This document shows, piece after piece, positions 10,970 to 47,880 of a stretch of 56,972 nucleotides of DNA. The translations under genes and the position numbers were made by a program. The DNA is from a virus (lineage: Duplodnaviria; Caudoviricetes), in the IMG/VR virus record IMGVR_UViG_3300048837_000350, positions 1 to 56,972 of that record. One strand, 5' to 3'. The notes below the pieces were generated by a model. It had not been told where the DNA came from and searched no databases. It saw only the letters and a list, made by a program, of their open reading frames with translations. The stretch's first letter is position 1. Each line of letters begins with the position of its first letter.

Positions 10970-11573
10970 AACCCTTTAGTGATAGGTCAAAGTCTCCAGT
11001 AGCAATAACGGCTTCTAGCATTGATTGAGCAATGTCTCGTATTTCCTTTTGCGCATCACTCTTATTGCGTAGTCCTTGAAAGTGCATGAATGATCGGAAG
11101 TTGAATCCAACATCCATTGTCACCTGAGAGTTGTATGGAAGGTAGAATCTCGCAGACTCTTTGGCCCTCTTGCGATCCATTCCTCCAGCCACTAGTCTCT
11201 CAAGTGTTTCGTGGTATAGGCGGAAGGCATTGCTGGTAAAGGAATCGAGTAGCGACGCTTCATCCTCGCTCCAGTCATCTGGAATCATCCATTTATCTTC
11301 CGTATGCTCCTTATAGCGAGCAGACTCAGCATTGACATTGACGCCAATACGATGCTTGATTATGTGTATGTGCGAAGCAGTGTCACATGTGACTAGAAAA
11401 TGCAGAAATGATTTCTCGAACGGAGTGTGGTGTCCAGCCTTGGCGAGGTTATCAAGTAGGTTTCCCATGCGGGCCTTCTTGCTATCGGTGAGATCGCGCG
11501 ATGTTGACGTCCACGCTGATAGCGCGTGAGATTCATCACCTCCATAATGACCAATAAGCTCAACGCTATTCAT
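10953..11573 (-). CDS. thyX: FAD-dependent thymidylate synthase
   Basis: GHHTPFE, KHR-x7-SARY, AKESARFYLP, NFRSFMHF..LR...AQKEIR. Confidence 0.93.
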   Translation of the reverse strand: MNSVELIGHYGGDESHALSAWTSTSRDLTDSKKARMGNLLDNLAKAGHHTPFEKSFLHFLVTCDTASHIHIIKHRIGVNVNAESARYKEHTEDKWMIPDDWSEDEASLLDSFTSNAFRLYHETLERLVAGGMDRKRAKESARFYLPYNSQVTMDVGFNFRSFMHFQGLRNKSDAQKEIRDIAQSMLEAVIATGDFDLSLKGFGYGS

Positions 11574-12054
11574 TAGACCCTCCGAGTAGCGAGTCTGGGC
11601 ATACCCATTCCACGATATCGCGCTCTTCCGTCACGTCGTGATACGCGTCTGATGGTAGTTCTTCCCTCAACTGTCTAGTCGTGACAGTTTCCTTACCGAC
11701 GACAATCTTCTGGCAGATCGACTCTCGAGCCAAGCACATTCTCACGTATAGAGATCCAACCCTACCGTTCAGGTAGAACGATCCGTGCGCGACGTCCTTC
11801 TCGACCTTGCCGGGGATTACCCTACTGAATCGTGCTGCTGATGCTTTCGCAGAGTCAGCGCCTTCATGATCCCAGAAGTAGATTGGACTCCAATCGTACT
11901 GTCCCAAGTCTGGTAGTTTCAGCTTGGGATTCTCTTCAAGTATGTCTGCGAGTTGTCGTAGCGAAGCGACATACTCGTTACGCAGCGTCTGCCCTGCCGC
12001 CGCGTACGTTACCTCGGCATCGTTTTGTTGTTCCAGTAGTTCGTCTGTACTCAT
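11566..12054 (-). CDS. hypothetical protein
   Basis: 162 aa, AGGAAGG SD. Confidence 0.7.
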   Translation of the reverse strand: MSTDELLEQQNDAEVTYAAAGQTLRNEYVASLRQLADILEENPKLKLPDLGQYDWSPIYFWDHEGADSAKASAARFSRVIPGKVEKDVAHGSFYLNGRVGSLYVRMCLARESICQKIVVGKETVTTRQLREELPSDAYHDVTEERDIVEWVCPDSLLGGSNE

Positions 12055-12180
12055 GATTGCCTTCCTGTTGTTGTTAAACCTTATCCGATGTGAACTGTCA
12101 GAAGACGTGAGCCTCTTAATGAGTCGCCTTGTTCACGGGGAGGATATCGACTGCGCTCGGATTACACGCATCCCCAACCT

Positions 12181-12387
12181 TTAGATACCGTTGATAGCTT
12201 GTAGTAGTGGACTCCACTGCGCCATTAGCACAGTCGTAATAACCTCATCTGGTAGTCCCTGCTCCTTCAGCAGTCGATACTGTAATCCCATAGCGATAGC
12301 GATAGGCTTAAACGCCTCACCCATCTGGTCTGCGCTGGCGATTGCGGCGGCCACAACATCGTCCTGAAACTCTGGTGAATCATCCAT
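12181..12387 (-). CDS. hypothetical protein
   Basis: 68 aa in the leftward operon. Confidence 0.5.
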   Translation of the reverse strand: MDDSPEFQDDVVAAAIASADQMGEAFKPIAIAMGLQYRLLKEQGLPDEVITTVLMAQWSPLLQAINGI

Positions 12388-12397
12388 TCGAGGAATG

Positions 12398-12889
12398 TTA
12401 CTCGATCACATCAGGCGAGTCAACACTCCCACCCATGCCCTCCATCGCCCACAATACAGTCTCCGTAGATACGGGCACGACTTGACGCCGCACCTCCACC
12501 GTACCCTCTGGCCAGCCCCTGCTACTACCTGCGAGCATGAGGCTACGCACGGTGACTCCAGTCATTTCTGATAACTCTTCGAGCGTGAGGTATTGGCATC
12601 CGTTGATTGCGATCTTCCCACCTACTGGTGGTAGTCCAATAATGCGAGTGACATCCCCAGCATCGAGTGGAGTGACGTCTGCCTCGGCAACGGCTGCAGC
12701 GCCGTACGCATCAACTGCTTGAACCCTGTTGTACTGCGTGACCGGAGTCAACGATTGTGCGAGTCGCATGACCTTGTTTGTTTTGAACGCGACTAGTCGT
12801 TCTACTCCATGAATCTCGATTACTCCATACCGATGCGTGGCCGCGTATGGTGGGCGATCATGTAATACAAACTTCTTGCGTTTAGCCAT
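12398..12889 (-). CDS. hypothetical protein with C-terminal HTH-like segment
   Basis: YLTLEELSEMTGVTVRSL; AAAGGA SD. Confidence 0.6.
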   Translation of the reverse strand: MAKRKKFVLHDRPPYAATHRYGVIEIHGVERLVAFKTNKVMRLAQSLTPVTQYNRVQAVDAYGAAAVAEADVTPLDAGDVTRIIGLPPVGGKIAINGCQYLTLEELSEMTGVTVRSLMLAGSSRGWPEGTVEVRRQVVPVSTETVLWAMEGMGGSVDSPDVIE

Positions 12890-12979
12890 GGTGATCCTTT
12901 CGCGTCCACTACCATCGCTATGCTATCGCTTCCGATACGGTGACGTGGTCGGAGGGCAATCAGAAAAACTTTATATTCA

Positions 12980-13662
12980 AGCGTGGCGGAACTGATCACG
13001 AAAGTGTGAAAGCAAGTCAGCTTGGAGCGTCAGGTTATACCTGAGCAGGACATACTCTGGCCTAGATATCACGGTAGTGCAGTTAAGTGGTATTGATGGG
13101 TAGCGATGGTGACGGGATGTCAGTCGTCCGTACGGAGGAGGATGTCAGTACACACTGTACGTGTACGCAGAGGGGGCGCTCCCATGCAGTTTCAACGAAT
13201 GAATATGAACCACTTAGTGGTCTATCACAAGTGTAGAGGGGGGCGATCTCCCGGCGGAGCGTGCGGCAAACAACCACACTACTTCACGCTAATGAACCGC
13301 CCTCCGAACACAGAGCCAATCTGGACAGTGCCAGAGCGTACGAGCGTAGACAACAGGCTGCCCGCAAGGGTGTGGACAAAGTCCACATTGTCTACAAGCG
13401 AGACAGCGTCGGCGCAACCAAACCATCCATGTGTAAGTGTGCTAGGGCCAGCGGCCCGCACACTGAAATCATGAGTAACTTTCTATAGACGAACCATTGC
13501 CTAGAACAATGTGTATGACTGCACACGATTCCATGGAATGACGTGAGTCAGATTCTTTAGCTTCAAAATAATCCGTCAGTGTCCACACTGTCTGATACAC
13601 TATTCATACCCTGCTGGGCCAGTGATCTCGGAGTATCTGCCTTGATCGCTGGCCCTCTTTTT
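12980..13662 (+). ncRNA. candidate large structured RNA (or structured origin region)
   Basis: Dense stem-loops with GNRA loops and a 3' terminator; no convincing ORF. Confidence 0.35.
13616..13662 (+). terminator. intrinsic terminator
   Basis: GGGCCAGTGATC...GATCGCTGGCCC-TCTTTTT. Confidence 0.7.
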
Positions 13663-13697
13663 ATGCTATGGTCTACGCCACAGTTCAGGGGGGCTAC

Positions 13698-15029
13698 GTG
13701 TCGATCATTCCAACAGAACGAGCATTGCTCGGAATCTGCATCGTGTCAGATAAAGCGCGAGAATACGCGCTCCAGAAAATAGCTCCAGACTATTTCCTCG
13801 CACCAAGCCATCAACATATTTATCAGGGGATCAAGGATCTCGCTGACACTAACCTTGACGAACTTACTCTAGTAGGACACCTACGCACGAAGGGCACGCT
13901 CGAGGAATCTGGTGGAGCATCCTTCATCATGAGCCTCGGCTCTGCTTTTCCGTCACTCAACTCCTACAAGCAGTACTGTGATCTAGTCTTCGCAGAGTAT
14001 GGTCGTCGTCAGGCTACTCTCGCAGCCGCTGAGATCACGAAAGCAGCAGAGCAAGCTAGTGAGATCGACTCGATACTTGAGAACGCAGACGCGCTCCTAT
14101 CAACGATCAGAAATAAAGTATCTCTCGCTAAGGGTGAAGTAGGTCAACACATATCTCTTGTCCAGAAAACGTATGAAGAGTATGAGCAGACTCAGGGAAT
14201 CCCATTCCCATTCTCTGACCTCAACAATATCGCTCGAGGCCAACACCCCGGAAACATCATCATGACCGGAGGATACTCGGCTGATGGTAAGACGTGGTGG
14301 GGATTGCAGTGTGCAGAGGAATCGGCTTCACTCGGTAATAGGACTGCGTGCATCACGCTCGAAATGCCGAAGATGGAACTCTATGAGCGACTACTCATCC
14401 AGTTCCCCAATGTCACTGACGCTGACATCTTGTCGCGCAGGGAAACAGAATCAGTTAAGCGTCGAAAGAAATACCTACTGGGACTACCCCTGTATATATA
14501 TGACTCCGATGATGGTATGGATAACATCGGTGCGATAGAGCGTGAAGTCATGCGTGCATACGCGGAGGGCAATCCGTACAAGTACATCGTCATCGACCAT
14601 ATGCACCTCATGAATCATGGGTCTGCTGACATGCGTATAGCTATCGGTGAAACCATGAAGCGTGCGAAGAGTCTCGCCGTGAAGTATGGAGTCGTCATAC
14701 ATTTCCTCGGCCAGCTACGTCGTGCTACCGATAAGGGTAAGAATAAGTTTCCGATGCCAACCATGGCTGACTTCCGAGAGTCGTCTGCTATCGAGAATAT
14801 CGCCGACTTCATCATGATGGTATGGCGCGAGCGTGACGAGGAGCAGCAGCCCATGAATACTGGGAAGCTCATCATTGCTAAAGTGCGTCGCGGGCAAGCA
14901 CCACACCCAATCAACATCACGTGGAAAGAAGACGTGTGCAAGTTCATAGTAACGCCTAGCCTCAGCACGTGGCGTCCAGTGAAAACAGCTTGGGGCGCAG
15001 ATCGCCCAGAGGAAACAGTCGTCTACTAG
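13698..15029 (+). CDS. dnaB: DnaB-like replicative helicase
   Basis: DnaB N-domain (ERALLG...F..P.HQ.IY), Walker A GYSADGKT, ITLEM, IVIDHMHLM, QLRR, DFRESSAIENIAD, IAKVRRG. Confidence 0.9.
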   Translation: MSIIPTERALLGICIVSDKAREYALQKIAPDYFLAPSHQHIYQGIKDLADTNLDELTLVGHLRTKGTLEESGGASFIMSLGSAFPSLNSYKQYCDLVFAEYGRRQATLAAAEITKAAEQASEIDSILENADALLSTIRNKVSLAKGEVGQHISLVQKTYEEYEQTQGIPFPFSDLNNIARGQHPGNIIMTGGYSADGKTWWGLQCAEESASLGNRTACITLEMPKMELYERLLIQFPNVTDADILSRRETESVKRRKKYLLGLPLYIYDSDDGMDNIGAIEREVMRAYAEGNPYKYIVIDHMHLMNHGSADMRIAIGETMKRAKSLAVKYGVVIHFLGQLRRATDKGKNKFPMPTMADFRESSAIENIADFIMMVWRERDEEQQPMNTGKLIIAKVRRGQAPHPINITWKEDVCKFIVTPSLSTWRPVKTAWGADRPEETVVY

Positions 15030-15038
15030 GAGTGGGTC

Positions 15039-15251
15039 GTGAGGATTATTGTTAAGGGTGAGAATGTTATTGAAGTGTCACTGTCTCGAAAGAACATTGA
15101 GTCACTACTACACATGCTCGATAATCGGGACAAAGCACGACCAGCGTTAGCTCGCGAAGACGATGATTGTGTACTACTGGTAGTGGCTGAAGAGAACGAC
15201 GAACACTACATGCAGCGTGAGCCGGGAACTATGAGTTGGGAACGCGAATAA
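15039..15251 (+). CDS. hypothetical protein
   Basis: 70 aa, AGGAG SD. Confidence 0.6.
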   Translation: MRIIVKGENVIEVSLSRKNIESLLHMLDNRDKARPALAREDDDCVLLVVAEENDEHYMQREPGTMSWERE

Positions 15252-15340: not shown

Positions 15341-15700
15341 ATGACGCTAGTAACCTACGGTTTCGGTACCGTAAAGAATGTGCAATCACGCACGTTCGGA
15401 CAAGACAATGAGCGCGTATCGTATCGCGCTAACCTTGAAGCTTTCGACGGGTCGCTCATCGAGTTTGATGCAGGCCCAGACGATCCCTCACCATTCGAGG
15501 GTAAGCTCGTCTTCTTCTCTGGTCGCGTGGAAACGATCAAGTACAAGAAGAAGGACACGGGCGAGGATAAGACTTTCAATGTCACTCGCCTCGGCACGCT
15601 GAAAGAGTTGAAGGACCTCCACCCTTCGCAGCAGCCTAATACGCCTGATCAAGCGGCCACTACTGGCAGTTCATACGACGACCAAGATTTGCCCTTCTGA
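15341..15700 (+). CDS. ssb: single-stranded DNA-binding protein
   Basis: OB-fold-like (FSGRVETIKYKKKDTGE), acidic tail YDDQDLPF. Confidence 0.75.
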   Translation: MTLVTYGFGTVKNVQSRTFGQDNERVSYRANLEAFDGSLIEFDAGPDDPSPFEGKLVFFSGRVETIKYKKKDTGEDKTFNVTRLGTLKELKDLHPSQQPNTPDQAATTGSSYDDQDLPF

Positions 15701-21881: not shown

Positions 21882-22157
21882 ATGAGCAAGAGCGGTAGGA
21901 GTAGGAGGAGAATCAATAGCCGCCGCAGGAGATCGCGAAACACATTCGTCTACGAGTATTGGGAATGGAAGTGCGCTTACTGTGGAGTGGAGATCACTGC
22001 TGGCGATGCGAATAAAGTCACAGACAAGACGGCAACGATAGATCACATAGTGCCGATCTCTATGGGCGGAGAGAACACGCTAGAGAATATCGTCGCATGT
22101 TGCCGCAAGTGCAACTTCGTTAAAGACAACGATCATCCAGACGATGCGTTCCTATAG
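21882..22157 (+). CDS. HNH endonuclease
   Basis: CAYC...TIDHIVP.S.GG.....N.V.CC..CN..K. Confidence 0.9.
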   Translation: MSKSGRSRRRINSRRRRSRNTFVYEYWEWKCAYCGVEITAGDANKVTDKTATIDHIVPISMGGENTLENIVACCRKCNFVKDNDHPDDAFL

Positions 22158-22874
22158 TGACATCACGCGCTGAAGCTCGAGCGTAGCCTTCTCGACTAGA
22201 TCCTTAGCAGCGTTCGCGCTCACACCCAGCACGCTACCAATCTTCGGATACGAGTGAGCTTCCCCGCCCCACAATCCGTAACGCATAGCGAGTACGCGGA
22301 TCATGTCATCGTTACCATCCTCAGTCATCTGCAGCATCGCGGCATCCATGCGATCCATGATGTCGAATAAGTATGTGGGATAGTGCGCGTCATTATCGTC
22401 ACGCATGTTCACGTCACTATCAACAAGCGGCAATGGAGTGACAGACTTCGCAAGCTCTTTCGCAAAGTCCTTGTCACCGGACTCCCACGCGCTTAGGAAG
22501 ACATGAGCCTTGGCTGCTCCGTTAGTTAAGTCTCGAGCAGCGCTCCTGCGGATCTCCGCATACACGAAGCTGAAGCAGTACGTCGTAGGATTACCGGGTA
22601 TCTTCTCGAGCTTGATACGTCCCATGCTGTGCAGTAGGCCAGTCATGCCAGCTTGGAAGAGATCCTCGAATGGTGTACTCACTGCTCCGCTTCGACACCA
22701 CTTCACTACGCACGCAACAACCATCTTCGAGTTGCGTATGCTGAACTCTTCCCACGCACGCTTGTCACCCTTGAGGTAGCGCTCTACTAGCGCTCGAGAC
22801 TCATCAAGAGTAGGCTTGCCGCCCATCCTGTCGGCCTCTTCCATGATCGCTATGACCGACTCCGGGATAATCAC
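22152..22874 (-). CDS. sigma70-family RNA polymerase sigma factor
   Basis: Region 2 (N.KMVV....FEDLFQAGM.GLL.S...P..Y....V) and region 4 (MRYGL.GGEAHSY..IG.VLGVS). Confidence 0.85.
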   Translation of the reverse strand: MIIPESVIAIMEEADRMGGKPTLDESRALVERYLKGDKRAWEEFSIRNSKMVVACVVKWCRSGAVSTPFEDLFQAGMTGLLHSMGRIKLEKIPGNPTTYCFSFVYAEIRRSAARDLTNGAAKAHVFLSAWESGDKDFAKELAKSVTPLPLVDSDVNMRDDNDAHYPTYLFDIMDRMDAAMLQMTEDGNDDMIRVLAMRYGLWGGEAHSYPKIGSVLGVSANAAKDLVEKATLELQRVMSL

Positions 22875-23381: not shown

Positions 23382-23808
23382 CCGCGTCGTACACTCCAAG
23401 ACTTTCCCCGAACCAGCGTATAGGAGTGGGCGCTCGAGCCTGTGGCACTCGGCAGAAGTAACGCTATGGGCACGACAAAACAACCGAACGGTTGTGGATG
23501 AGAAAGATTGGCCCGGACCAGACGAGGAGCATCTAGCGCTGAAGTGGTGGCGCAGGATCTACTTCATGGATGTGAAGCGACGCGCAAAGATCAGGCTAGG
23601 CTTGGTAGAAGACTTGAAGCCAGCGCAGACGTTCGAGAAGAATCGTCAGAACCTATTAGCGCAGAGCGATGAGCGGGCAATCATCGCCCTGCGCAGACTC
23701 GTGATTGCTCGAGTCGGTATCAGTAATGGATCATTCGTAGCAGCGTACGAGCTACTCAGCGGTACTGTGTTTACGCTTCCGAGCTTGCCGCCTGATCTCG
23801 TAGAGTGA
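23317..23808 (+). CDS. protein with AlpA/excisionase-like N-terminal DNA-binding domain
   Basis: VAHALG.......FPEP...GRSSLW...EV..W. Confidence 0.5.
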   Translation: MPVLELWNKYAVAHALGLKDASRVVHSKTFPEPAYRSGRSSLWHSAEVTLWARQNNRTVVDEKDWPGPDEEHLALKWWRRIYFMDVKRRAKIRLGLVEDLKPAQTFEKNRQNLLAQSDERAIIALRRLVIARVGISNGSFVAAYELLSGTVFTLPSLPPDLVE

Positions 23809-24291
23809 CTCGAGCGCTTCCCATACTGGGCGGAATCCACGGAGTGGTTGATCTTCGCGCCTATCCCCACCAGTCCTATCATCACGCCCGAACATTACTA
23901 AGCGTAGTTCACCGGCCACACTCCTGCCTACTCCTAGGTATGTAGCGATCTCTCCGACGCGTGGTACGCGCCCAAGGCTAGTAGCTAGGGTTCGTATCTC
24001 GATCAAGCGATTGATGTTGATAGAATCGTTTACAGCCTGCCTACAGTGGAAGCAGTGCCCACTCTCATTGTCTCGCGGAATGGCCGTGCCGCATGCGCAG
24101 CGTGTAGCACTCATGTGATTGCGATTGATTGCACGCTTACGGGTAGGGCGGGGATTGCGTAGGTAGTAGCTGTTGACTACGTTGAGGCTAAGGCCAGTCT
24201 CGGTAGCGATCTCTTGTGGAGTGTAGTCGCAGTCGTGTAGTCGATGCACTTCATCCCACGCATCCATGCTTGTCTTGATTTCAGTCTTCAT
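23752..24291 (-). CDS. HTH plus Zn-finger regulator
   Basis: TPQEIATETGLSLNVV; CACG...CFHC; PRVGEIATYLGV. Confidence 0.65.
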   Translation of the reverse strand: MKTEIKTSMDAWDEVHRLHDCDYTPQEIATETGLSLNVVNSYYLRNPRPTRKRAINRNHMSATRCACGTAIPRDNESGHCFHCRQAVNDSININRLIEIRTLATSLGRVPRVGEIATYLGVGRSVAGELRLVMFGRDDRTGGDRREDQPLRGFRPVWEALESLYEIRRQARKRKHSTAE

Positions 24292-24431: not shown

Positions 24432-24604
24432 TACTCGCTCACCCTCTCGATGTCGGTCACGAACCTATCGTGATTAAGGTTGATTGATACGCCTCGCTCT
24501 ATCTTCTCTGCCTTGTGGTAAGAGTGCGGCCCCATCCTGCGTACCTCTGCGTACTCTCCGTCGATCTCCTCCGAGATCACTACGTAGTAGTTGTCATCGC
24601 TCAT
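24431..24604 (-). CDS. 57-aa hypothetical (below ORF-track cutoff)
   Basis: MSDDNYYVV...AEKIERGVSINLNHDRFVTDIERVSE*; ATGA overlap with dnaN. Confidence 0.6.
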   Translation of the reverse strand: MSDDNYYVVISEEIDGEYAEVRRMGPHSYHKAEKIERGVSINLNHDRFVTDIERVSE

Positions 24605-25713
24605 GCTGGCAACCTTACTGGCATCAAGATAGCCTGTCGTCGTGGACTATCAATACTCGAGAAGAGCAGCGGCCTATTCGTAACCGCGTGATACCCAAGC
24701 TCGCAACCACCACCCATGAACTCGAGACAATCAATAGCGAACTCACAGTTCACGCCAGTAGTAACGTCTTCCTCGCCATGCGTTCGACTAACCAGATGAC
24801 CAGACGTATGCGACGGCCCGTCTTGTACGGTCACGCCTAACGATAGTCTGGTGCTATGCGTCGAATGATTGATTGACATCCTTACCGGACTGTTGCGCAT
24901 GTTCAGTTTATTCATGAGCTTCAAGCTCTCAAGCATGTCGCTGACCGTGCCGTCAAGGATCTCGAGCGTCTCGGTCACTGGAGGACGCAGCCTGTCATAG
25001 TCAGGATACTGTCCCTCGATGTTGCGTAGATGCAAGGTGAATCCCTCGCCGACAAGCGTCGTGTACTTGCAGTCCTTGTCGTAGTAGACGCACGATAACT
25101 CAGTCATGGTTGCGACTGATACCGCTGGCAGTATCACGCTGAAGTCCACGCTCTTGCCAAGCTCTGTAAAGTCGCACGCCATACGATACGAGTCTGTGGC
25201 CGTGACACGCAGCGCTCCGTCTTGTGATCGAAGATTAACTCCAGTCAGCACAGGGCGTGACATATCAACGCTAGCGAACTTGGATACAGCCTTGATCACT
25301 GGCATGGGATTGCCAAGCATGCTCGTCATCGTGTTCTTGTTACGCTTGGGCAAGTCCAAGGTTGGCCAGTCTGATAGCTCGAACGTGTTGATGCCAGTAT
25401 TGCCGATGCGACTCGCAACCAGTAGCTCGTCTTCAGCACCAAGCAACATGACGACGGAGTCCTTAGCCTTCAATGATGAGAGCAGCTTAGACAGTGTGCG
25501 TGAGTCTGCGATGACATCACAGTCAAGACCAGTGTCGATCTCGACTACAGCATAGGCTTCCATGTTAGTGGCCTCAATAGTCTTCGGTGTGATCTTCACG
25601 CCGTAGAGGACTTGGATACTGGACTTGTGCTTCGTTGCCTTGAGAACACGGGAGAGCGCGTCCTTTAGTTCTTTGACTGGTACTGATCTCTTTGTCTTTG
25701 TGGCAGTTGCCAT
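24601..25713 (-). CDS. dnaN: DNA polymerase III beta sliding clamp
   Basis: 370 aa; ATNME, SRPVLTGV, ATDSYRM, IEGQYPDY..L, C-terminal ILMPVR. Confidence 0.9.
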   Translation of the reverse strand: MATATKTKRSVPVKELKDALSRVLKATKHKSSIQVLYGVKITPKTIEATNMEAYAVVEIDTGLDCDVIADSRTLSKLLSSLKAKDSVVMLLGAEDELLVASRIGNTGINTFELSDWPTLDLPKRNKNTMTSMLGNPMPVIKAVSKFASVDMSRPVLTGVNLRSQDGALRVTATDSYRMACDFTELGKSVDFSVILPAVSVATMTELSCVYYDKDCKYTTLVGEGFTLHLRNIEGQYPDYDRLRPPVTETLEILDGTVSDMLESLKLMNKLNMRNSPVRMSINHSTHSTRLSLGVTVQDGPSHTSGHLVSRTHGEEDVTTGVNCEFAIDCLEFMGGGCELGYHAVTNRPLLFSSIDSPRRQAILMPVRLPA

Positions 25714-26566: not shown

Positions 26567-26748
26567 GTTAATACCTCGTTTGCTACGCCATGCGCCACGG
26601 CCGGATACTTTCGGGCAAGCATGGCTAGGAACAACTTTTCAAGATGATCGTCGTGTATCAAGATTCTCATTGACTTGAATCCGTCGTCCACTATGATGGT
26701 CTGGTCAACCCAGTTGATTCCAGTTGACTCGTGTGTGTGATTGCTCAT
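26563..26748 (-). CDS. hypothetical early protein
   Basis: MSNHTHEST..., overlapping start/stop codons. Confidence 0.55.
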   Translation of the reverse strand: MSNHTHESTGINWVDQTIIVDDGFKSMRILIHDDHLEKLFLAMLARKYPAVAHGVANEVLT

Positions 26749-27083
26749 CCGTACACCAACTCTCCGAACGCAGCGAACTGCACGACACAATCAGCAGCGT
26801 CAGCATCGATATAGCCAGCGTCACGATACTTCAACGCTTCCTTTATTTGATCAGTCAAGTCGCTACGGATACGCCCACCCTTGGCAAGCTCACGCGCAAC
26901 CTTCTCAAGCTGCGTAGCCTTGACTATCATGGGATCGAAGTCGTCTTCAGTCTCGGGCGTTCCCTTGATCTTCACCTCGACCCATGTCAGGTCTTCCAGA
27001 CGCTTCGCTGAAGTGATGATGCTCCAGTATCCGATGCCGCCCTCGACTGCTGTTGTCAGGATGTCCTCGCCGAATGTACTCAT
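26745..27083 (-). CDS. hypothetical phage protein
   Basis: DILTTAVEGGIGYW...IDADAADCVVQFAAFGELVYG. Confidence 0.7.
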   Translation of the reverse strand: MSTFGEDILTTAVEGGIGYWSIITSAKRLEDLTWVEVKIKGTPETEDDFDPMIVKATQLEKVARELAKGGRIRSDLTDQIKEALKYRDAGYIDADAADCVVQFAAFGELVYG

Positions 27084-27264: not shown

Positions 27265-27663
27265 CTATCCTTCCTTTGTGATTGTTGGATTGTCTACAAA
27301 TCGTGCTACTAGTTCAACGACGTTGTCGGACACGAACATGGTCTGGAAGTATTCCATCAACGCCTTCTTGGAGTAGCGGTCAACACCCTGCCCACGGTCT
27401 GGTCGAATCCACTCCATCGGATGACACTGACGTACTAGGAAACCACGATCACTAGAGTGGATCTCGTCGCCGACGACAGTGCTGAAGCGCTTCCAGTCCT
27501 TGTCGTGGCTACAGGATACGACGACGTAGCGCCCATCTTCGCCTTGCTCTTGCCCGTCCACTGGTAGTTCCCAGCGGATGCTTCGCTGCTGCTTGCCGTA
27601 CATGTCAACCTTAAATGCGGTGACGTTGCCATTGCTTAGTGCGTATGTTTCTCGGTAGTTCAT
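27265..27663 (-). CDS. hypothetical early protein
   Basis: 132 aa, downstream of a consensus promoter. Confidence 0.7.
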   Translation of the reverse strand: MNYRETYALSNGNVTAFKVDMYGKQQRSIRWELPVDGQEQGEDGRYVVVSCSHDKDWKRFSTVVGDEIHSSDRGFLVRQCHPMEWIRPDRGQGVDRYSKKALMEYFQTMFVSDNVVELVARFVDNPTITKEG

Positions 27664-28643: not shown

Positions 28644-28793
28644 TTATTGCTCCTCGTCTGTGTCTAGGATGTCTCGGCCAGACATGCGAACGATGTCGGC
28701 AATCTCTTCCAGTGTGTCTGCGCTCCAGTCGTTAGCCGACATGATGTCGGTTATTAGGTTCAGCGCATGCTCGTCTGATATCTCGCGCATCAT
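28644..28793 (-). CDS. 49-aa acidic microprotein (below ORF-track cutoff)
   Basis: MMREISDEHALNLITDIMSANDWSADTLEEIADIVRMSGRDILDTDEEQ*. Confidence 0.6.
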   Translation of the reverse strand: MMREISDEHALNLITDIMSANDWSADTLEEIADIVRMSGRDILDTDEEQ

Positions 28794-29275
28794 GCACCGC
28801 CCTTGTTAACCTTGACCGAACGCGTACCCGTAGACTCGGCAACGTACCGAAGCACCCACTTCTCGCCCGCCGCCATAGCGTCAAGCGCCTTCAGGTCTGC
28901 CTTATGGAATACAATCGGCAGCATGTCGGGACGCTTACGCTTCAGCGCCCGATACAGTAGCGTGTTGTTAACCTCGCGCACCCGTGGCGCTTTGGTTACT
29001 GTAACGCCACCGTACACGCCCGGATCTGCCGCCTGTAGCTTCGCCTTAATCGGTGCTTGCAAGTCCTTACACGCGCTCACGATAGCCTCAAGCGCTGCGT
29101 ACTCGGTACCCATAGCGTCAAGGCTACGCGCCTTAGAATCTGGCACACTCGCCACGATATCTAGTGCCGCCTGTATTGCCTTCCCGCGTCCGTCCCTAGA
29201 CTCCAGCGCGGTAGCGATAGAATCCATCAGTGCTTGCATGTCGGCAGTTGCCTGCCCGGTAGTTTCTGTTTTCAT
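28790..29275 (-). CDS. hypothetical early protein
   Basis: 161 aa, GGAAGGCTATACC SD. Confidence 0.7.
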   Translation of the reverse strand: MKTETTGQATADMQALMDSIATALESRDGRGKAIQAALDIVASVPDSKARSLDAMGTEYAALEAIVSACKDLQAPIKAKLQAADPGVYGGVTVTKAPRVREVNNTLLYRALKRKRPDMLPIVFHKADLKALDAMAAGEKWVLRYVAESTGTRSVKVNKGGA

Positions 29276-29739: not shown

Positions 29740-29768
29740 ATCATAGCGCCAATGTCGGACGCTATCAA
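29740..29768 (-). promoter_or_regulatory. early SigA-type promoter
   Basis: Reverse complement TTGATA-GCGTCCGACATTGGCGC(17)-TATGAT. Confidence 0.75.
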
Positions 29769-30787
29769 CCCTTTAGCGCACGCTTAAGCCGGTTCTCGCG
29801 TCGCTCAGTCTTCCCAAAGCGTCCCGCCAGTTTATGCCCGGCCACCCATATCTGCGCCTGTACATCACGGGGAGGCAATCCAACCTCCGCCGCTATAGTG
29901 CGCACCGCATCAGACATCGCTGCATACTGCCAGCCGTTTGGGGATGTCTTAGACTCTATCCCTGCCAGTAGTAGCATATGAACGTCAACGGTAACGGCAC
30001 TAGACGTTGCGCTGTATAGGTTGCGTGCGTATGCCCAGCGCTTCTGCGCATCATACCCGAAGCGTACCATCGCACCCCGCGCACATTCCCGAGCAGATTC
30101 GCGAAAAACTGTCATACCGTGTTCGGCCTTAGACGTATCCCCGAGCGCACCGGGCAGCAGGACGTCCCGAGCGCGTTCCCACTTCGCACGTGGACTGACA
30201 GCGCTTGCAACCTCGCACGATGTACGCGCATCCGCACCATAACGCGCACCGATAGACTTAACCGCTAGACCCTCCAGACGGTACCATTCCGCCGCATCGG
30301 CCAGCGTATCCGCATCGGCCAGCGATAGGATCTGCCGATACCGCTTAAGCGCATCACGTTGTAGTTTCCGGTACGCCTTCGCGGTACGATTCTGCCATTC
30401 CCGCGAATCATCCAACGGTTGCATGATTGCATAGCACCCAAAACCGGTCAACGCGTTGCGCAGCGAATCGTGTAGGCGCTCAAGGTTAGCCTCCGCAATG
30501 TCTGCGACAACTACCTTAGAACGCTTCCCGGCATACACGCCGATAGCCTGCCTGCAATCCGTCGCACCATTACGCTCAAGCACGCCAGTCACGTAGTCTA
30601 CCGTCGCACCATTACAATCCACCGATACAATCGCGCGGTCTAGTCGCACCTGCCCATAGTCTCCAGCAGCATAACGTGCGCTGCAGAACACTTCGCACTG
30701 TACTACACGCTTACCCTTGCTCAGCCAATATCCGGCATCGTCGCCAGCGTAATAGGTACCGTCAATAATCGTTGCAGCCCGTGTCAT
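29765..30787 (-). CDS. DUF7178-like protein (possible HhH DNA-glycosylase-like fold) with extra N-terminal domain
   Basis: EWY...A..SP...W...KR..Y..N...VTVDVHM...QY....A......P..VQA.IW. Confidence 0.55.
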   Translation of the reverse strand: MTRAATIIDGTYYAGDDAGYWLSKGKRVVQCEVFCSARYAAGDYGQVRLDRAIVSVDCNGATVDYVTGVLERNGATDCRQAIGVYAGKRSKVVVADIAEANLERLHDSLRNALTGFGCYAIMQPLDDSREWQNRTAKAYRKLQRDALKRYRQILSLADADTLADAAEWYRLEGLAVKSIGARYGADARTSCEVASAVSPRAKWERARDVLLPGALGDTSKAEHGMTVFRESARECARGAMVRFGYDAQKRWAYARNLYSATSSAVTVDVHMLLLAGIESKTSPNGWQYAAMSDAVRTIAAEVGLPPRDVQAQIWVAGHKLAGRFGKTERRENRLKRALKG

Positions 30788-31879: not shown

Positions 31880-32048
31880 TATTAGCCTTCCGTTGGATTG
31901 ATTGATACCCGGCATGCGCCGGATCATACGCACGTCAACGTGCGCACGATTCGAAGCACTGTAAGCACAATCTTCCCGAACCTGCCAGCGGTATCCACCT
32001 GCCAGCCCAACCTATACGCGGGAACCTTCCCGCTATGTACTCAAACCG

Positions 32049-32288
32049 TTACGGTAGTGCCCGCTTAAACGCACCCGGCGCAGGCGCTGGCCTATCTTCC
32101 CGCACGCCTTCAAACGATAGCGATAGATCGACCGCGCCGCTATGCACGCGAATCGTGCGGGCTACAGTATCGCGCCGATTCTTCCCCGCATTGCGCGCGG
32201 TGGCAGGCTGCTCAGGATAGCGCGCGCCGATAGCATCCGCCAATCGCGCACGTTCGCGTTCACGCTTGCCTAGCCTACGCGTAGCCAC
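32049..32288 (-). CDS. basic hypothetical protein, first gene of the leftward early operon
   Basis: GGAGGTG SD before GTG32288. Confidence 0.45.
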   Translation of the reverse strand: MATRRLGKRERERARLADAIGARYPEQPATARNAGKNRRDTVARTIRVHSGAVDLSLSFEGVREDRPAPAPGAFKRALP

Positions 32289-32829
32289 TAGAGCACCTCC
32301 AGAGTCAACACGCCACCATACGCAGCAGCATCCGCAGAGCGTGCCCAAATAGCGCGCAAATCTTCAGAGCCAAGAACCGCCAAGAGAGTCAAGCGCGCCC
32401 TAATGATTCCATTACAGTCAGTAAGAGTCAGTATCACGTGTAAGCCTTCTAAGTAAGTGGCCAGTAGGCCGTTCAACCTTATGTCTTCAGTATCGTCCTA
32501 ACCTAGCCGTTTGATTAGTCCAACGTCCAAGCAGGCCGACTATCTCTCTCTTTTTTCCTGCTTCTTAGCCAAATAACTCCTGATCCACGTGTGCGTACTA
32601 TGGTTCGTTACGTGGTGTTTATTTACTGTGGTCGTGTGCGCGTGCGCGTGTGGGGGATTGTGATTCTCACCGGAAGATTTGCAAGTGGTATCCACTGCGA
32701 TGTGGAAGTATTGTTTTTTCCTGCTATTGATCGTTCTGTGTGTACAGGATTTTCTGCAAATGTTGGTATAGAATCATCGGTAAAGTCCCTGCAAAATATC
32801 TGTGATATTTACCGGGGTGGTGAATATGC

Positions 32830-32858
32830 TTGATTTGGTGAATGTGTCGTGACACAAT
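32830..32858 (+). promoter_or_regulatory. rightward promoter
   Basis: TTGATT-N17-CACAAT. Confidence 0.5.
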
Positions 32859-32891
32859 GGTGGGACTTGTTCACTACTAGGAAGGCTACGC

Positions 32892-33341
32892 ATGTCTACT
32901 GATATTGCTTGTGGTAGGAGCGCGTATGTTGCGTGTTCTCAGGATGTTGATGATCGTGTTGAGGTGAGTACGAATCCCGATCTTGTTGATCCGGGGTTTG
33001 TGCATGTGAGTGTGACTCAGGTCGATGACTCGAATGAGGTTGTGCTTACGAAGGCTAGTGCGTTGTTTCTTGCTGATCAGTTGAGGTCGATTGCTTCTAG
33101 TGTTCAGAGTCCTGCGCGTGCTGGCTGTGATGGTGAGGATCAGATTGCGCGTGTGAGGTTTGCTCCGAATGGTAAGCAGTATTGCTACTACGCTCCTGCT
33201 CGCGCGGAGGTTGGTGATTTGTTGAAGGTGACCACGTATGGTAGCAAGGAGAATCTTGTGGAGATCGTGGCGCTTGGTCGCGGGTTTTATGAGGGGCCTA
33301 TCAGTGAGTGTGATGCGTGGTATCGGAAGGGTAGTTCATGA
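32892..33341 (+). CDS. hypothetical protein
   Basis: AGGAAGGCTACGC SD. Confidence 0.7.
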   Translation: MSTDIACGRSAYVACSQDVDDRVEVSTNPDLVDPGFVHVSVTQVDDSNEVVLTKASALFLADQLRSIASSVQSPARAGCDGEDQIARVRFAPNGKQYCYYAPARAEVGDLLKVTTYGSKENLVEIVALGRGFYEGPISECDAWYRKGSS

Positions 33342-35658: not shown

Positions 35659-35984
35659 GCGTGTGCACGGATTGCAATGACGACTCCCACCAATGCACGG
35701 AATGCGGGAACGCATACTTCTCTATTCCCTGCGAACAGTGGCACGACAAGGAGCAGGTGACATTCAATGGCGGGGTCAAATACGGAGAGTGGAAGGGTTA
35801 TGCCGCTTGTCTTGCAGACGTAGTGGCATGGCTACGAAAGACTGGCGATTGGTTTAGCGACATTACCGACAACGGGCAATGCGAACACGGGAACTACAGT
35901 TGGGAAGGATGCGAGACGTGTGGCATCAAGGGTGTGGCTGATGCGATTGAGCGGGGCGAAGCGAAAGGCGCAAGCAATGAGTAG
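35655..35984 (+). CDS. Cys-rich hypothetical protein
   Basis: CTDC, CTEC, CEH...CETC. Confidence 0.6.
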   Translation: MSVCTDCNDDSHQCTECGNAYFSIPCEQWHDKEQVTFNGGVKYGEWKGYAACLADVVAWLRKTGDWFSDITDNGQCEHGNYSWEGCETCGIKGVADAIERGEAKGASNE

Positions 35985-36330
35985 AGGCGAGCTACTATTC
36001 TCGGTCAGTATTAAAGATTGCAAAGTAGAGTCCCTGCGTAACAGTAAAGGCGCTGGTGGACAGCATCGCGATAAGACCAGTAGCGCCCAGAGAGTTACTC
36101 ACGAGCCAAGTGGAGCTAGCGCGTATTGTCAGGATCATCGCGAGCAGTATCGCAATAAGCGTGATGCGTTCCTGAAGATGATTAGAACTCCACAGTTCAA
36201 GTCGTGGCATCGTCGGATGATTAATGAGTTGAGTGGGATGCCTACTGTTGAGCAGGTTGTCGAAGAGCAGATGACTGAGTGTAACATCATGATTGAGGTT
36301 CGTGGCGATAAGGGTTGGGAGAAGATATGA
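35977..36330 (+). CDS. GGQ-motif peptide chain release factor-like (RF-1 domain) protein
   Basis: SKGAGGQHRDKTSSAQRVTHEPSG....CQDHREQYRNK..A. Confidence 0.85.
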   Translation: MSRGELLFSVSIKDCKVESLRNSKGAGGQHRDKTSSAQRVTHEPSGASAYCQDHREQYRNKRDAFLKMIRTPQFKSWHRRMINELSGMPTVEQVVEEQMTECNIMIEVRGDKGWEKI

Positions 36331-42127: not shown

Positions 42128-42170
42128 GGCCCGCCTCCGGTTCTAGCCTTCCGGGGGGCGGGCCTTCTTA
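42128..42170 (+). terminator. hairpin terminator
   Basis: GGCCCGCCTCCGG-loop-CCGGGGGGCGGGCC-TTCTTA. Confidence 0.65.
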
Positions 42171-42172
42171 TT

Positions 42173-44868: not shown

Positions 44869-45657
44869 GTGCTAACTCTTCCACTACCACAGCGACCTAG
44901 TACCTATCAGCCGGGCGGCATTATCGCAGCCGCCCGGCCTTTGGGTGTTTCTGTTGACGAGTGGCGTCAGGGCATTAGTCTTCGCAAGAGTTGCGTGACC
45001 GGCTCTACTGCCGGAGGATGTAGCCGTCCTTCATTCTTGCCTGTTCAGGATCTTGATGGTGACGCGGTTTTCGAGCCGTTCAATATCAATACTGGAGCGA
45101 GGGTTTGCGATCCCTTGTCTGGCGATGATATTCGTCTTGCTGCTGAGAATGATGCGATTAAGGCTGCTGGATCTAATATCGCTTCGGCGCTTACCCAGTC
45201 TCCTATGGGTAGCCCTGATATTGAGAATGATTCGATTGACATCACTCCTCTTGCTCCTAGCGGGTTTGCCGCGACGATGCAGGGATTGATTGAGCAGATG
45301 GTTTCGTGCGGTCAGCATGAGATTGTTTTCCATGTTCCTGCTGGCTATGAAATGTACCTACTTAGCAATGACCTTATTGAGTGGGACGCGGTTAGTGGTA
45401 CGTATCACGCTGGCCCTCATCTTGTGATTGTTGATGAGTATCTGAATGTTGGCCCAGCGCTTGCTCCTCCTCCAGTGGTTGATGGTAGTCAGGTCTGGAT
45501 TCATGCTACTGGACCTATCTATCTTGAAATGGATGAGGTGAAGATCGTTGAGCATACTGTTCAGCCCGCGAATACGACTGCGATTGGTTCGGAGCGCTTG
45601 GTGCTTCTAGCTTTTGATCCTTGCTGCATGTTCTCGGCCGTTGCGCAGGTGTGCTAA
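44869..45657 (+). CDS. second capsid protein (putative pentamer-type)
   Basis: 262 aa directly after the MCP; W.QGI....C, F.PF, WIHATGP, ER..L.AFDPC. Confidence 0.55.
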   Translation: MLTLPLPQRPSTYQPGGIIAAARPLGVSVDEWRQGISLRKSCVTGSTAGGCSRPSFLPVQDLDGDAVFEPFNINTGARVCDPLSGDDIRLAAENDAIKAAGSNIASALTQSPMGSPDIENDSIDITPLAPSGFAATMQGLIEQMVSCGQHEIVFHVPAGYEMYLLSNDLIEWDAVSGTYHAGPHLVIVDEYLNVGPALAPPPVVDGSQVWIHATGPIYLEMDEVKIVEHTVQPANTTAIGSERLVLLAFDPCCMFSAVAQVC

Positions 45658-47841: not shown

Positions 47842-47880
47842 CAAAGGCCGCTCCTACGCTCCGGGGGCGGCCTTTGTGTT
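47842..47880 (+). terminator. hairpin terminator
   Basis: CAAAGGCCGCTCC-loop-GGGGCGGCCTTTG-TGTT. Confidence 0.7.

Follow-up and report, generated by a model that had tools for sequence, protein, structure and literature searches.

A conserved non-coding region with a predicted plus-strand terminator upstream of dnaB in a siphovirus-like phage genome

The linear IMG/VR virus record IMGVR_UViG_3300048837_000350 (56,972 nucleotides (nt), CheckV completeness 74%; the whole of this stretch is called the window below) comes from a siphovirus-like phage with genes for terminase, portal, capsid, tail and tape-measure proteins, ThyX and a DnaB helicase, and further for an endonuclease VII-like protein, an Erf/Rad52-like annealing protein, RusA, a deoxynucleoside monophosphate (dNMP) kinase, a DnaN-like clamp and sigma-like proteins. 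Our subject is the 808-nt gap at 12890-13697, which separates the minus-strand gene 12398-12889, and with it a minus-strand operon, from the plus-strand dnaB gene. The product of gene 12398-12889 (163 amino acids (aa)) matches no family in Pfam, PHROGs or NCBIfam. An earlier note, written from the letters of this DNA, had singled out the gap as a hairpin-dense candidate for a large non-coding RNA (ncRNA) or an RNA-primed origin in an otherwise tightly packed genome. The packing is as described only in part: on a crude gene map the gap is the second-largest in the genome, and gaps of 958, 641, 581 and 575 nt are also found.

The right-hand end of the gap was set at 13697 because we place the dnaB start at GTG 13698. 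No ribosome site is found at the listed start, ATG 13668; GTG 13698 is preceded by caggggggctac, a match to the initiation motif cagg(a/g)aggctac(atc)ATG that recurs in this phage, and three of six DnaB proteins in its cluster are 443 aa long, with a first codon that corresponds to GTG 13698, probably the true start. Variants of the locus were available as Logan contigs from four runs in four studies (X1-X4), of which X1-X3 share one sequence (a 51,097-nt contig in X1). Folding strength is given throughout as a z score against shuffled sequence. The features of the locus are as follows.

12890-12965, minus strand: variable spacer, replaced in X1-X3 and skipped in X4, its GC skew negative like that of the minus-strand genes; probable 5' untranslated region of gene 12398-12889

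12966-13490, plus strand: conserved non-coding core, from alignment to X1-X3 and X4, codon usage, frame breaks and the lack of homologues

12970-12977, either strand: AT-rich element TTTATATT, -10-like both ways (TATATT on plus, TATAAA on minus), read from the sequence

13491-13562, plus strand: variable insert, with 30 letters instead in X1-X3 and 33 in X4; holds the TGACT...AGTCA hairpin

13563-13615, plus strand: conserved 3' block, which aligns with the dnaB piece in X1-X3 (z -2.41) and holds the 3' arm of a predicted long-range helix

13616-13662, plus strand: predicted intrinsic terminator, with a 12-bp GC-rich stem (one G-U pair) and a 16-nt loop, then TCTTTTT

13664-13672, plus strand: candidate extended -10 (TGnTATGGT) of a separate dnaB promoter, from sequence only; a weak match, with about 0.05 expected by chance by our own estimate

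13687-13700, plus strand: ribosome site AGGGGGG and probable dnaB start GTG 13698, from the initiation-motif match and the starts of cluster mates

The gap is non-coding. That it holds no credible gene, as had been claimed, is borne out over the whole of 12890-13697 by codon usage, frame breaks and missing homologues. Codon-usage log-odds trained on 38 genes of this phage give 0.377 +/- 0.111 bits/codon for the genes (n=38) and 0.24-0.47 for the small accepted ones, against -0.157 for open reading frame (ORF) 13106-13474 and -0.010 for ORF 13261-13488, and no frame of the gap exceeds 0.22 bits/codon in any 60-codon window. Neither ORF has a Pfam or PHROG match, and a 125-codon stop-free run arises in 13.6% of 1000 dinucleotide shuffles. 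The minus-strand ORF 13279-13461 was rejected, with eight of its nine inferred changes non-synonymous and no ribosome site. The window's three gap ORFs, looked up by their longest starts only, are absent from the protein collection, in which the window's DnaB and 163-aa protein are both present.

A search of 5.8 billion proteins returned seven candidates and, among them, one relative: P0058, a 115-aa "hypothetical protein" on an 8,235-nt contig whose flanking proteins are 99% identical to those of the window (DnaB 451/453). P0058 consists of window frame 2 over 13142-13303 (51/54 identical) joined to frame 1 over 13306-13488 (52/62), a frame switch exactly as predicted by the indels of X1-X3 (+1 after 13304, +1 after 13374 and -1 at 13385); the ORF on the 8,235-nt contig follows this path and differs in two clustered patches, 13302-13325 and 13372-13386. 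Read along the same path, the window scores -0.018 bits/codon, a value as low as in none of 747 real-gene windows of 115 codons. Between P0058 and its cluster mate P0060, 12 of 115 residues differ, just one conservatively, and P0060 continues past the stop. P0058 has no homologue in a set of 1.84 billion representative proteins, where it matches itself and, spuriously, a repetitive 1838-aa protein. Coding-type conservation of ORF 13106-13474, which had been named as the observation that would speak against an RNA, was looked for, and neither frame nor stop is kept in the relatives. For annotation, the start of dnaB moves to GTG 13698 and the "hypothetical proteins" of two related contigs are spurious. 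On the 8,235-nt contig, the 163-aa neighbour protein is called from residue 23.

The gap is not uniformly conserved, as the alignments of the variants to the window show.

11570-12184, X1-X3: 68 substitutions in 615 nt

12181-12888, X1-X3: 104 substitutions in 708 nt (14.7%)

12889-12965, X1-X3: swapped for 79 unrelated letters

12966-13490, X1-X3: 41 substitutions and 3 gaps in 525 nt (7.8%)

13491-13562, X1-X3: swapped for 30 letters

13563-15200, X1-X3: 119 substitutions and 4 gaps in 1638 nt (7.3%), dnaB included

12456-12884, X4: 81 substitutions in 429 nt (18.9%)

13134-13479, X4: 22 substitutions and 1 gap in 346 nt (6.4%)

13678-14377 (dnaB), X4: 65 substitutions in 700 nt (9.3%)

By these alignments, the non-coding core 12966-13490 is conserved as well as or better than dnaB and differs less than the left-hand genes (14.7% and 18.9%). 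The DnaB protein of the X1-type contig is identical to that of the window at 428 of 443 residues; most differences in dnaB would therefore be synonymous and the neutral rate several-fold above the 6-8% of the core, and on the sequence comparison the core is under purifying selection. Within the conserved 3' block, X4 differs from the window at 13588, 13589 and 13612.

Beyond the variants, blastn against 50,697 phage records gave no DNA match. Searches of IMG/VR with DnaB, a DnaB alignment, P0058 and the 163-aa protein found no relative of the locus (the only match of the DnaB alignment was an unrelated locus at 22% identity), searches for relatives of the locus in JGI metagenome contigs and GTDB genome contigs found none either, and two hairpin patterns of the gap had no match in IMG/VR. 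An IMG/VR fragment of 17,063 nt encodes a portal protein 99% identical to that of the window and does not reach the dnaB region. Going by the protein collection, variant contigs of 57,095, 58,021, 57,362, 51,097, 24,570 and 8,235 nt exist, and more distant DnaB relatives stand at 48% and 32% (P0002, P0003).

The clearest signal of strand comes from the 3' end. The segment 13616-13662 has, by sequence, what a plus-strand Rho-independent terminator is expected to have and is predicted to be one: 13608-13662 folds at -27.1 kcal/mol (z -5.54, pair probability 1.00), and a genome-wide scan scores the hairpin 13616-13655 at -25.9 kcal/mol, in one class with the terminators at 42165 (-26.3) and downstream of the genes for the major capsid (-30.3) and major tail (-19.1) proteins. 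A T-run on the minus strand of the hairpin was looked for and is absent. A ready-made terminator scan with a loop limit of 8 misses the element owing to its 16-nt loop. It ends 25 nt 5' of the dnaB ribosome site; no plus-strand gene lies 5' of it, and a plus-strand transcription unit inside the gap is therefore implied. Elsewhere in the genome, strong plus-strand intrinsic terminators lie at 42128-42172 (near the end of the portal gene), 44900-44955 (after major capsid) and 47847-47880 (after major tail).

The order of leader, terminator and dnaB is seen on one strand, and the promoter is represented only by a -10-like hexamer that a consensus scan leaves unflagged. The left edge of conservation (12966 in X1-X3, 12971 in X4) coincides with TTTATATT, and GC and AT skew turn to plus-strand sign at about 12960-12970. 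From its sequence, we infer a promoter role for 12970-12977, an element without a -35. Phage-specific promoters that escape a sigma-70 consensus scan may exist, because the phage encodes two sigma-factor-like proteins, both on the minus strand, at 22152-22874 and 23752-24291 (phrog_351, E 1.6e-09; weak Sigma70 r3/r4 matches). A base change in the candidate extended -10 at 13664-13672, towards consensus, is implied by V2I in the DnaB call of one relative.

How strongly the region folds depends on the span and on the control. With 20 shuffles, 12960-13662 has a plus-strand z of -4.06, an inflated value; with 100 shuffles, 12980-13662 gives z -2.70 on the plus strand (1/100 shuffles as good) and -1.64 on the minus strand (6/100). 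Folded as DNA, the gap has z -2.99 (20 shuffles). For a genome-internal control, the fold energies of 2272 windows, each 200 nt long, were fitted by regression to their dinucleotide content (R2 0.70); the plus-strand windows that start at 13351, 13401, 13201, 13551 and 13301 rank 9, 20, 46, 52 and 55 by this regression, and those starting at 12951-13051 lie at or above the expected energy (the 5' part, 12951-13100, has z +0.3 to +1.2 and is not unusually foldable). Of the 1126 spans of 700 nt, those that start at 13151 and 13101 take the first and second places on the plus strand, and the second and fourth on the minus strand. By these predictions, about 13100-13700 is the most consistently foldable part of the genome, with a modest plus-strand bias, and the 5' 130 nt are excluded from this statement.

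The predicted structural elements are listed here with their pair probabilities; z scores of single hairpins used 200 shuffles, in windows picked after the hairpins had been seen.

13031-13043, plus strand: predicted hairpin CAGGU-UAU-ACCUG, pair probability 0.94, z -3.53 for 13026-13050

13080-13101, plus strand: 5' arm of a predicted long-range closing helix, pairing with 13571-13590, mean pair probability 0.66-0.87 in the fold of 12980-13662

13346-13395, plus strand: predicted three-way junction of an 8-bp outer stem, a CCC-GCAA-GGG hairpin and hairpin 13372-13386, pair probabilities 0.89-0.97

13436-13464, plus strand: predicted strong bulged hairpin of 7 + 5 pairs, pair probabilities 0.99-1.00, z -3.76

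The long-range helix is a prediction only; it would comprise 19 pairs in three runs, with four G-U pairs in its 11-pair run, and both of its arms lie in conserved blocks, so placed that the helix spans the variable insert 13491-13562. The region of the three-way junction, 13340-13400, has z -3.43 on the plus and -2.40 on the minus strand. All helices named in the earlier note, its TATATT (12972-12977) and its hairpin with T-run (13616-13662) are indeed present in the sequence, and five local folds beat their shuffles (13026-13050, z -3.5; 13236-13312, -2.8; 13340-13400, -3.4; 13430-13472, -3.8; 13608-13662, -5.5), but as a structural case the list is thinner than it looked: four of the named helices are at chance level (12988-13024, z -0.4; 13120-13170, -0.2; 13204-13230, -1.2; 13510-13558, -0.8). 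The TCTGG/CCAGA and long-range CGGAGG/CCTCCG pairings are altered in relatives, and the TGACT...AGTCA hairpin (z -0.77) lies in the segment 13491-13562 that relatives lack. The comparison with shuffled controls comes out in favour of folding on the plus strand, with a modest effect, and the composition-based control puts the top 700-nt span here. Rfam, also suggested as a check, yielded no family: Rfam 15 (4227 models) has no match in the whole window at gathering thresholds, and at E up to 10 the only match in 12800-13750 is a chance one to a mammalian long non-coding RNA exon (15.6 bits vs a threshold of 40, E 0.33). A scan for transfer RNA and transfer-messenger RNA found none.

Where the variants differ gives a second view of the structure. 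From two translated variants, in which only amino-acid-altering changes are visible, 19 isolated base substitutions were inferred in 13142-13488. In a fold of the window alone, their mean probability of being unpaired is 0.63 vs 0.40 for the region (p 0.004); 10 of the 19 fall at positions where this probability is above 0.9, a class that makes up 18% of positions, and all 10 substituted A's are at 0.91 or higher vs 42% of the 92 A's overall. Helices with a pair probability above 0.8 contain none of the 19 substitutions, and T13290C and C13226T keep their pair through G-U. With base-matched sampling, p is 0.045 for the plus-strand fold and 0.0125 for the minus-strand fold. The sole inferred change in the hairpin 13436-13464 is in its bulge, at 13444; in the three-way junction, relatives have the inner hairpin 13372-13386 replaced wholesale, and the translated flanks over the outer stem are without amino-acid change. 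Taken as predictions, these patterns give moderate evidence that the hairpins are under selection.

The best-supported reading is that the gap is a conserved, non-coding, plus-strand transcription unit which ends at the predicted terminator 25 nt before the dnaB ribosome site. That a functional plus-strand RNA is made here we consider somewhat probable; that this RNA is a cis-acting leader, or gate, of the replication operon is a tentative proposal, and the position of the terminator is the only direct functional clue. RNA polymerase would start near the AT-rich element, at about 12972-12985, and transcribe some 680 nt of purine-rich RNA. The RNA would fold into the hairpins at 13031-13043, 13346-13395 and 13436-13464, closed by the helix 13080-13101/13571-13590, and transcription would halt at 13616-13662. 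RNA and terminator could then gate dnaB in cis, so that polymerase would have to read through in the manner of attenuation or antitermination; alternatively, within the same model, the terminator may insulate a separate dnaB promoter. One candidate for an antiterminator pairing, the 10-bp perfect complement of 13444-13453 with 13647-13656, was dropped as being at chance level because equally long complements involve the non-conserved segments 12911-12920 and 12945-12957.

Several observations weigh against a structured cis-acting RNA. The conserved core by itself (12980-13490) has a plus-strand z of only -1.64, with 6/100 shuffles as good, and a minus-strand z of -0.67, and at 525 nt it far exceeds what known attenuators need. 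Three changes, G13299A and those at 13322 and 13323, disrupt predicted pairs; the substitutions are known from amino-acid differences only, so that changes silent in that frame are invisible, and since the minus-strand fold does equally well in the substitution test, the test separates neither RNA from DNA hairpins nor one strand from the other. The patchy core differences in the very close relative on the 8,235-nt contig may in part reflect recombination. A sigma-70 consensus scan finds no promoter in the gap, and the -35 position falls in a non-conserved segment. Finally, an extended -10 at 13664-13672, which its sequence makes possible, would render read-through unnecessary and favour an independent RNA gene.

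Set against the idea of a large phage ncRNA with plus-strand signals throughout, then, what stands is a non-coding, conserved region that holds the most foldable 700-nt span, matches no Rfam family and has a plus-only terminator, a fold bias and a skew that agree in strand; what has weakened is the structural case. If the RNA is real, it would be an undescribed large ncRNA of a wastewater and freshwater siphovirus lineage, sited where replication genes are switched on. Phage ncRNAs of this size are rare, and well-studied model systems have supplied the few origin transcripts and RNA antiterminators known so far; the locus would then be a tractable case for asking how replication is controlled or started in phages that lack an obvious initiator or primase. 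If there is only a leader and a terminator, the layout is an ordinary regulatory one and the annotation correction remains. A limited literature check, which is not proof of absence, found no described RNA family upstream of phage dnaB.

The main rival is a transcription-primed origin, in which a plus-strand transcript forms a persistent RNA-DNA hybrid, primes the leading strand and exposes single-stranded DNA for DnaB loading, a mechanism also put forward for the PE1-T transcript of lactococcal phage c2 and for RNA II of ColE1. We hold this to be improbable, if the strongest of the competing accounts: it fits the position of the gap, non-coding between divergent modules and adjoining dnaB, and the absence of any primase, polymerase or initiator family among the ORFs scanned (Pfam, PHROGs), but nothing in the sequence speaks positively for it. 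Purines are frequent on the plus strand (A 0.276, G 0.286), the gap is hairpin-rich as DNA, and the divergent neighbour resembles DNA-binding folds: the C-terminal half of the 12398-12889 protein is similar to HTH_17/MerR/excisionase-type domains in the ESM Atlas (template-modelling score by query 0.30-0.40, a lead only). The Ceduovirus origin is likewise a non-coding region between divergent modules, with a PE1 transcript regarded as crucial (PMC7150918). On the other hand, the gap has no iterons, the direct-repeat arrays of an iteron- or DnaA-box-type origin, only two-copy families of 10-20 nt; there is no AT-rich unwinding region (the lowest GC is 0.40 in 60-nt windows); the cumulative GC skew simply tracks the direction of the genes, and a minimum near 32 kb is deeper; a strong 3' terminator is not expected of a primer RNA; the blastn search of phage records found no DNA match; and, with so many ORFs outside any family, a missing initiator or primase is weak evidence.

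A bolder form makes the structured RNA of about 0.7 kb itself the replication initiator, its R-loop supplying both the primer and a single-stranded landing pad for DnaB. Replication could then start in a phage that has a helicase and a sliding clamp but no recognisable initiator protein or primase; we think this form quite unlikely. Placing an origin by GC skew was dropped, as the skew mirrors gene orientation. There are three sites containing GTCCACA, at 13371-13379 (minus), 13379-13387 (plus) and 13579-13587 (plus), the first of which reads as the 9-mer of the actinobacterial DnaA box; this was dropped too, as the site lies inside the hairpin replaced in relatives and is probably due to chance. 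Between the gap and the remainder of the genome, shared 11-mers are about as numerous as our estimate for chance.

Could the RNA instead be a stand-alone, trans-acting large ncRNA with its own promoter and terminator, directed at targets in host or phage and next to dnaB by accident? Its own strong predicted terminator, a possible separate dnaB promoter just downstream, long blocks without visible change among the variants (13389-13488 is unchanged in P0058) and the absence of an Rfam family would all suit such a gene. We nevertheless rate it unlikely: it is known from one narrow phage lineage only, searches of the phage records, IMG/VR, JGI metagenome contigs and GTDB genomes turned up no relative, we can name neither a target nor a partner, and the thermodynamic support is modest.

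Control at the level of DNA only, with conserved blocks that bind phage or host proteins (for instance the divergent HTH-like 163-aa protein), hairpins that are incidental or cruciforms, and no functional RNA, strikes us as just as doubtful. The region lies between divergent operons and beside a protein whose C-terminal half is HTH-like (again a lead only), the association of substitutions with pairing is as strong on the minus-strand fold, the DNA fold is better than its shuffles, and a 13-nt motif occurs twice, 200 nt apart, with 12/13 identity. Yet one copy of this motif is inside the hairpin replaced in relatives, no repeated operator-like family is found, a continuously conserved 525 nt is a long stretch for operator sites, and the plus-only terminator and the plus/minus folding asymmetry would need another explanation. 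Last, a small basic protein gene like P0058/P0060 (115-122 aa), frameshifted in the window, is very improbable: gene callers predicted it on two related contigs, GGAGGAGG stands just 5' of ATG 13142 and the N-terminal part agrees with window frame 2, but its codon score falls under all real-gene windows, its frame differs between window and relatives with one 5-residue stretch replaced, all but one of the 12 differences between P0058 and P0060 (90% identity) are non-conservative and the stop is lost (DnaB is 97% identical across lineages), no homologue is found among the representatives, so long an open frame turns up in 13.6% of shuffles, and the ribosome-site spacing is 3 nt vs the phage's usual 6-8 nt.

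Some features elsewhere in the genome deserve mention. The 15-nt motif cagg(a/g)aggctacatc stands, nearly identical, immediately 5' of the ATG in at least seven genes:

11566-12054, 24601-25713, 26745-27083, 27265-27663, 28790-29275 and 29765-30787, minus strand: genes with the 15-nt motif, from the sequence

32892-33341, plus strand: gene with the 15-nt motif, from the sequence

A second divergent gap, 31934-32891 (958 nt), holds weak ORFs only and no sigma-70 consensus match, and may be an early promoter region; unlike the gap upstream of dnaB, it folds worse than its composition predicts (200-nt windows, z +1 to +2.6). ORF 35920-36330 has an RF-1 domain (peptide-chain-release or ArfB-like; PF00472, E 2.5e-13). 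The 119-aa protein of 15341-15700 has no family match and ends in ...DDQDLPF, a tail that we take to resemble the acidic C-terminal tip of bacterial SSB, in keeping with the SSB listed in the earlier note.

Returning to the preferred reading of a conserved plus-strand transcription unit before dnaB, several known systems invite comparison. GOLLD, ROOL and OLE are large bacterial and phage ncRNAs of unknown function that are widespread and strongly supported by covariation. The element in the window shares their size class (about 0.6-0.8 kb), their phage or prophage setting and their many helices; unlike them, it is known from one narrow lineage, has only indirect structural support and matches none of the 4227 Rfam 15 models. 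Lambda-type gating of replication genes by a terminator (tR1, before O and P) and the leader RNA of phage P4 are a further comparison. As in these, a predicted intrinsic terminator lies here between an early promoter (in our case only putative) and replication genes; unlike in lambda, no N, Q or nut-like component turned up, in searches not aimed at them, and the leader upstream of the terminator is 680 nt of non-coding sequence vs cro in lambda.

Also comparable are conAn2 of the pLS20-type plasmids, HK022 put and EAR, non-coding leaders that act as RNA in cis on downstream terminators (PMC8191782). The same paper describes conAn2 as 260-600 bp long, with stem-loops and a GC-rich stretch, and poorly conserved between systems. 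Like conAn2, the non-coding region of the window sits 5' of a predicted terminator in the operon of a mobile element; conAn2, in contrast, follows the gene for the conAn1 protein in the same transcript, and its function is described there as established by reporter assays. In the window, one terminator is seen before dnaB, read-through is hypothetical, no partner protein is known and Rfam has no match; put and EAR, by the same account, are much smaller (PMC8191782).

The origin of the Ceduoviruses (lactococcal phage c2) is the other comparison. As set out in PMC7150918, it is a non-coding stretch of several hundred nucleotides between divergent blocks, in which no ORF has a proper ribosome site; the non-coding PE1-T transcript is regarded as essential, and closely related phages carry different sequence types. 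Plasmid assays are reported to have shown that the c2 region is active as an origin, whereas the element in the window is known from its sequence alone. The two differ further in that blastn against the phage records, as above, gives no sequence similarity and that the element in the window adjoins the DnaB gene and ends in a strong predicted terminator. Like the c2 origin, the gap in the window is non-coding and lies between divergently transcribed gene blocks.

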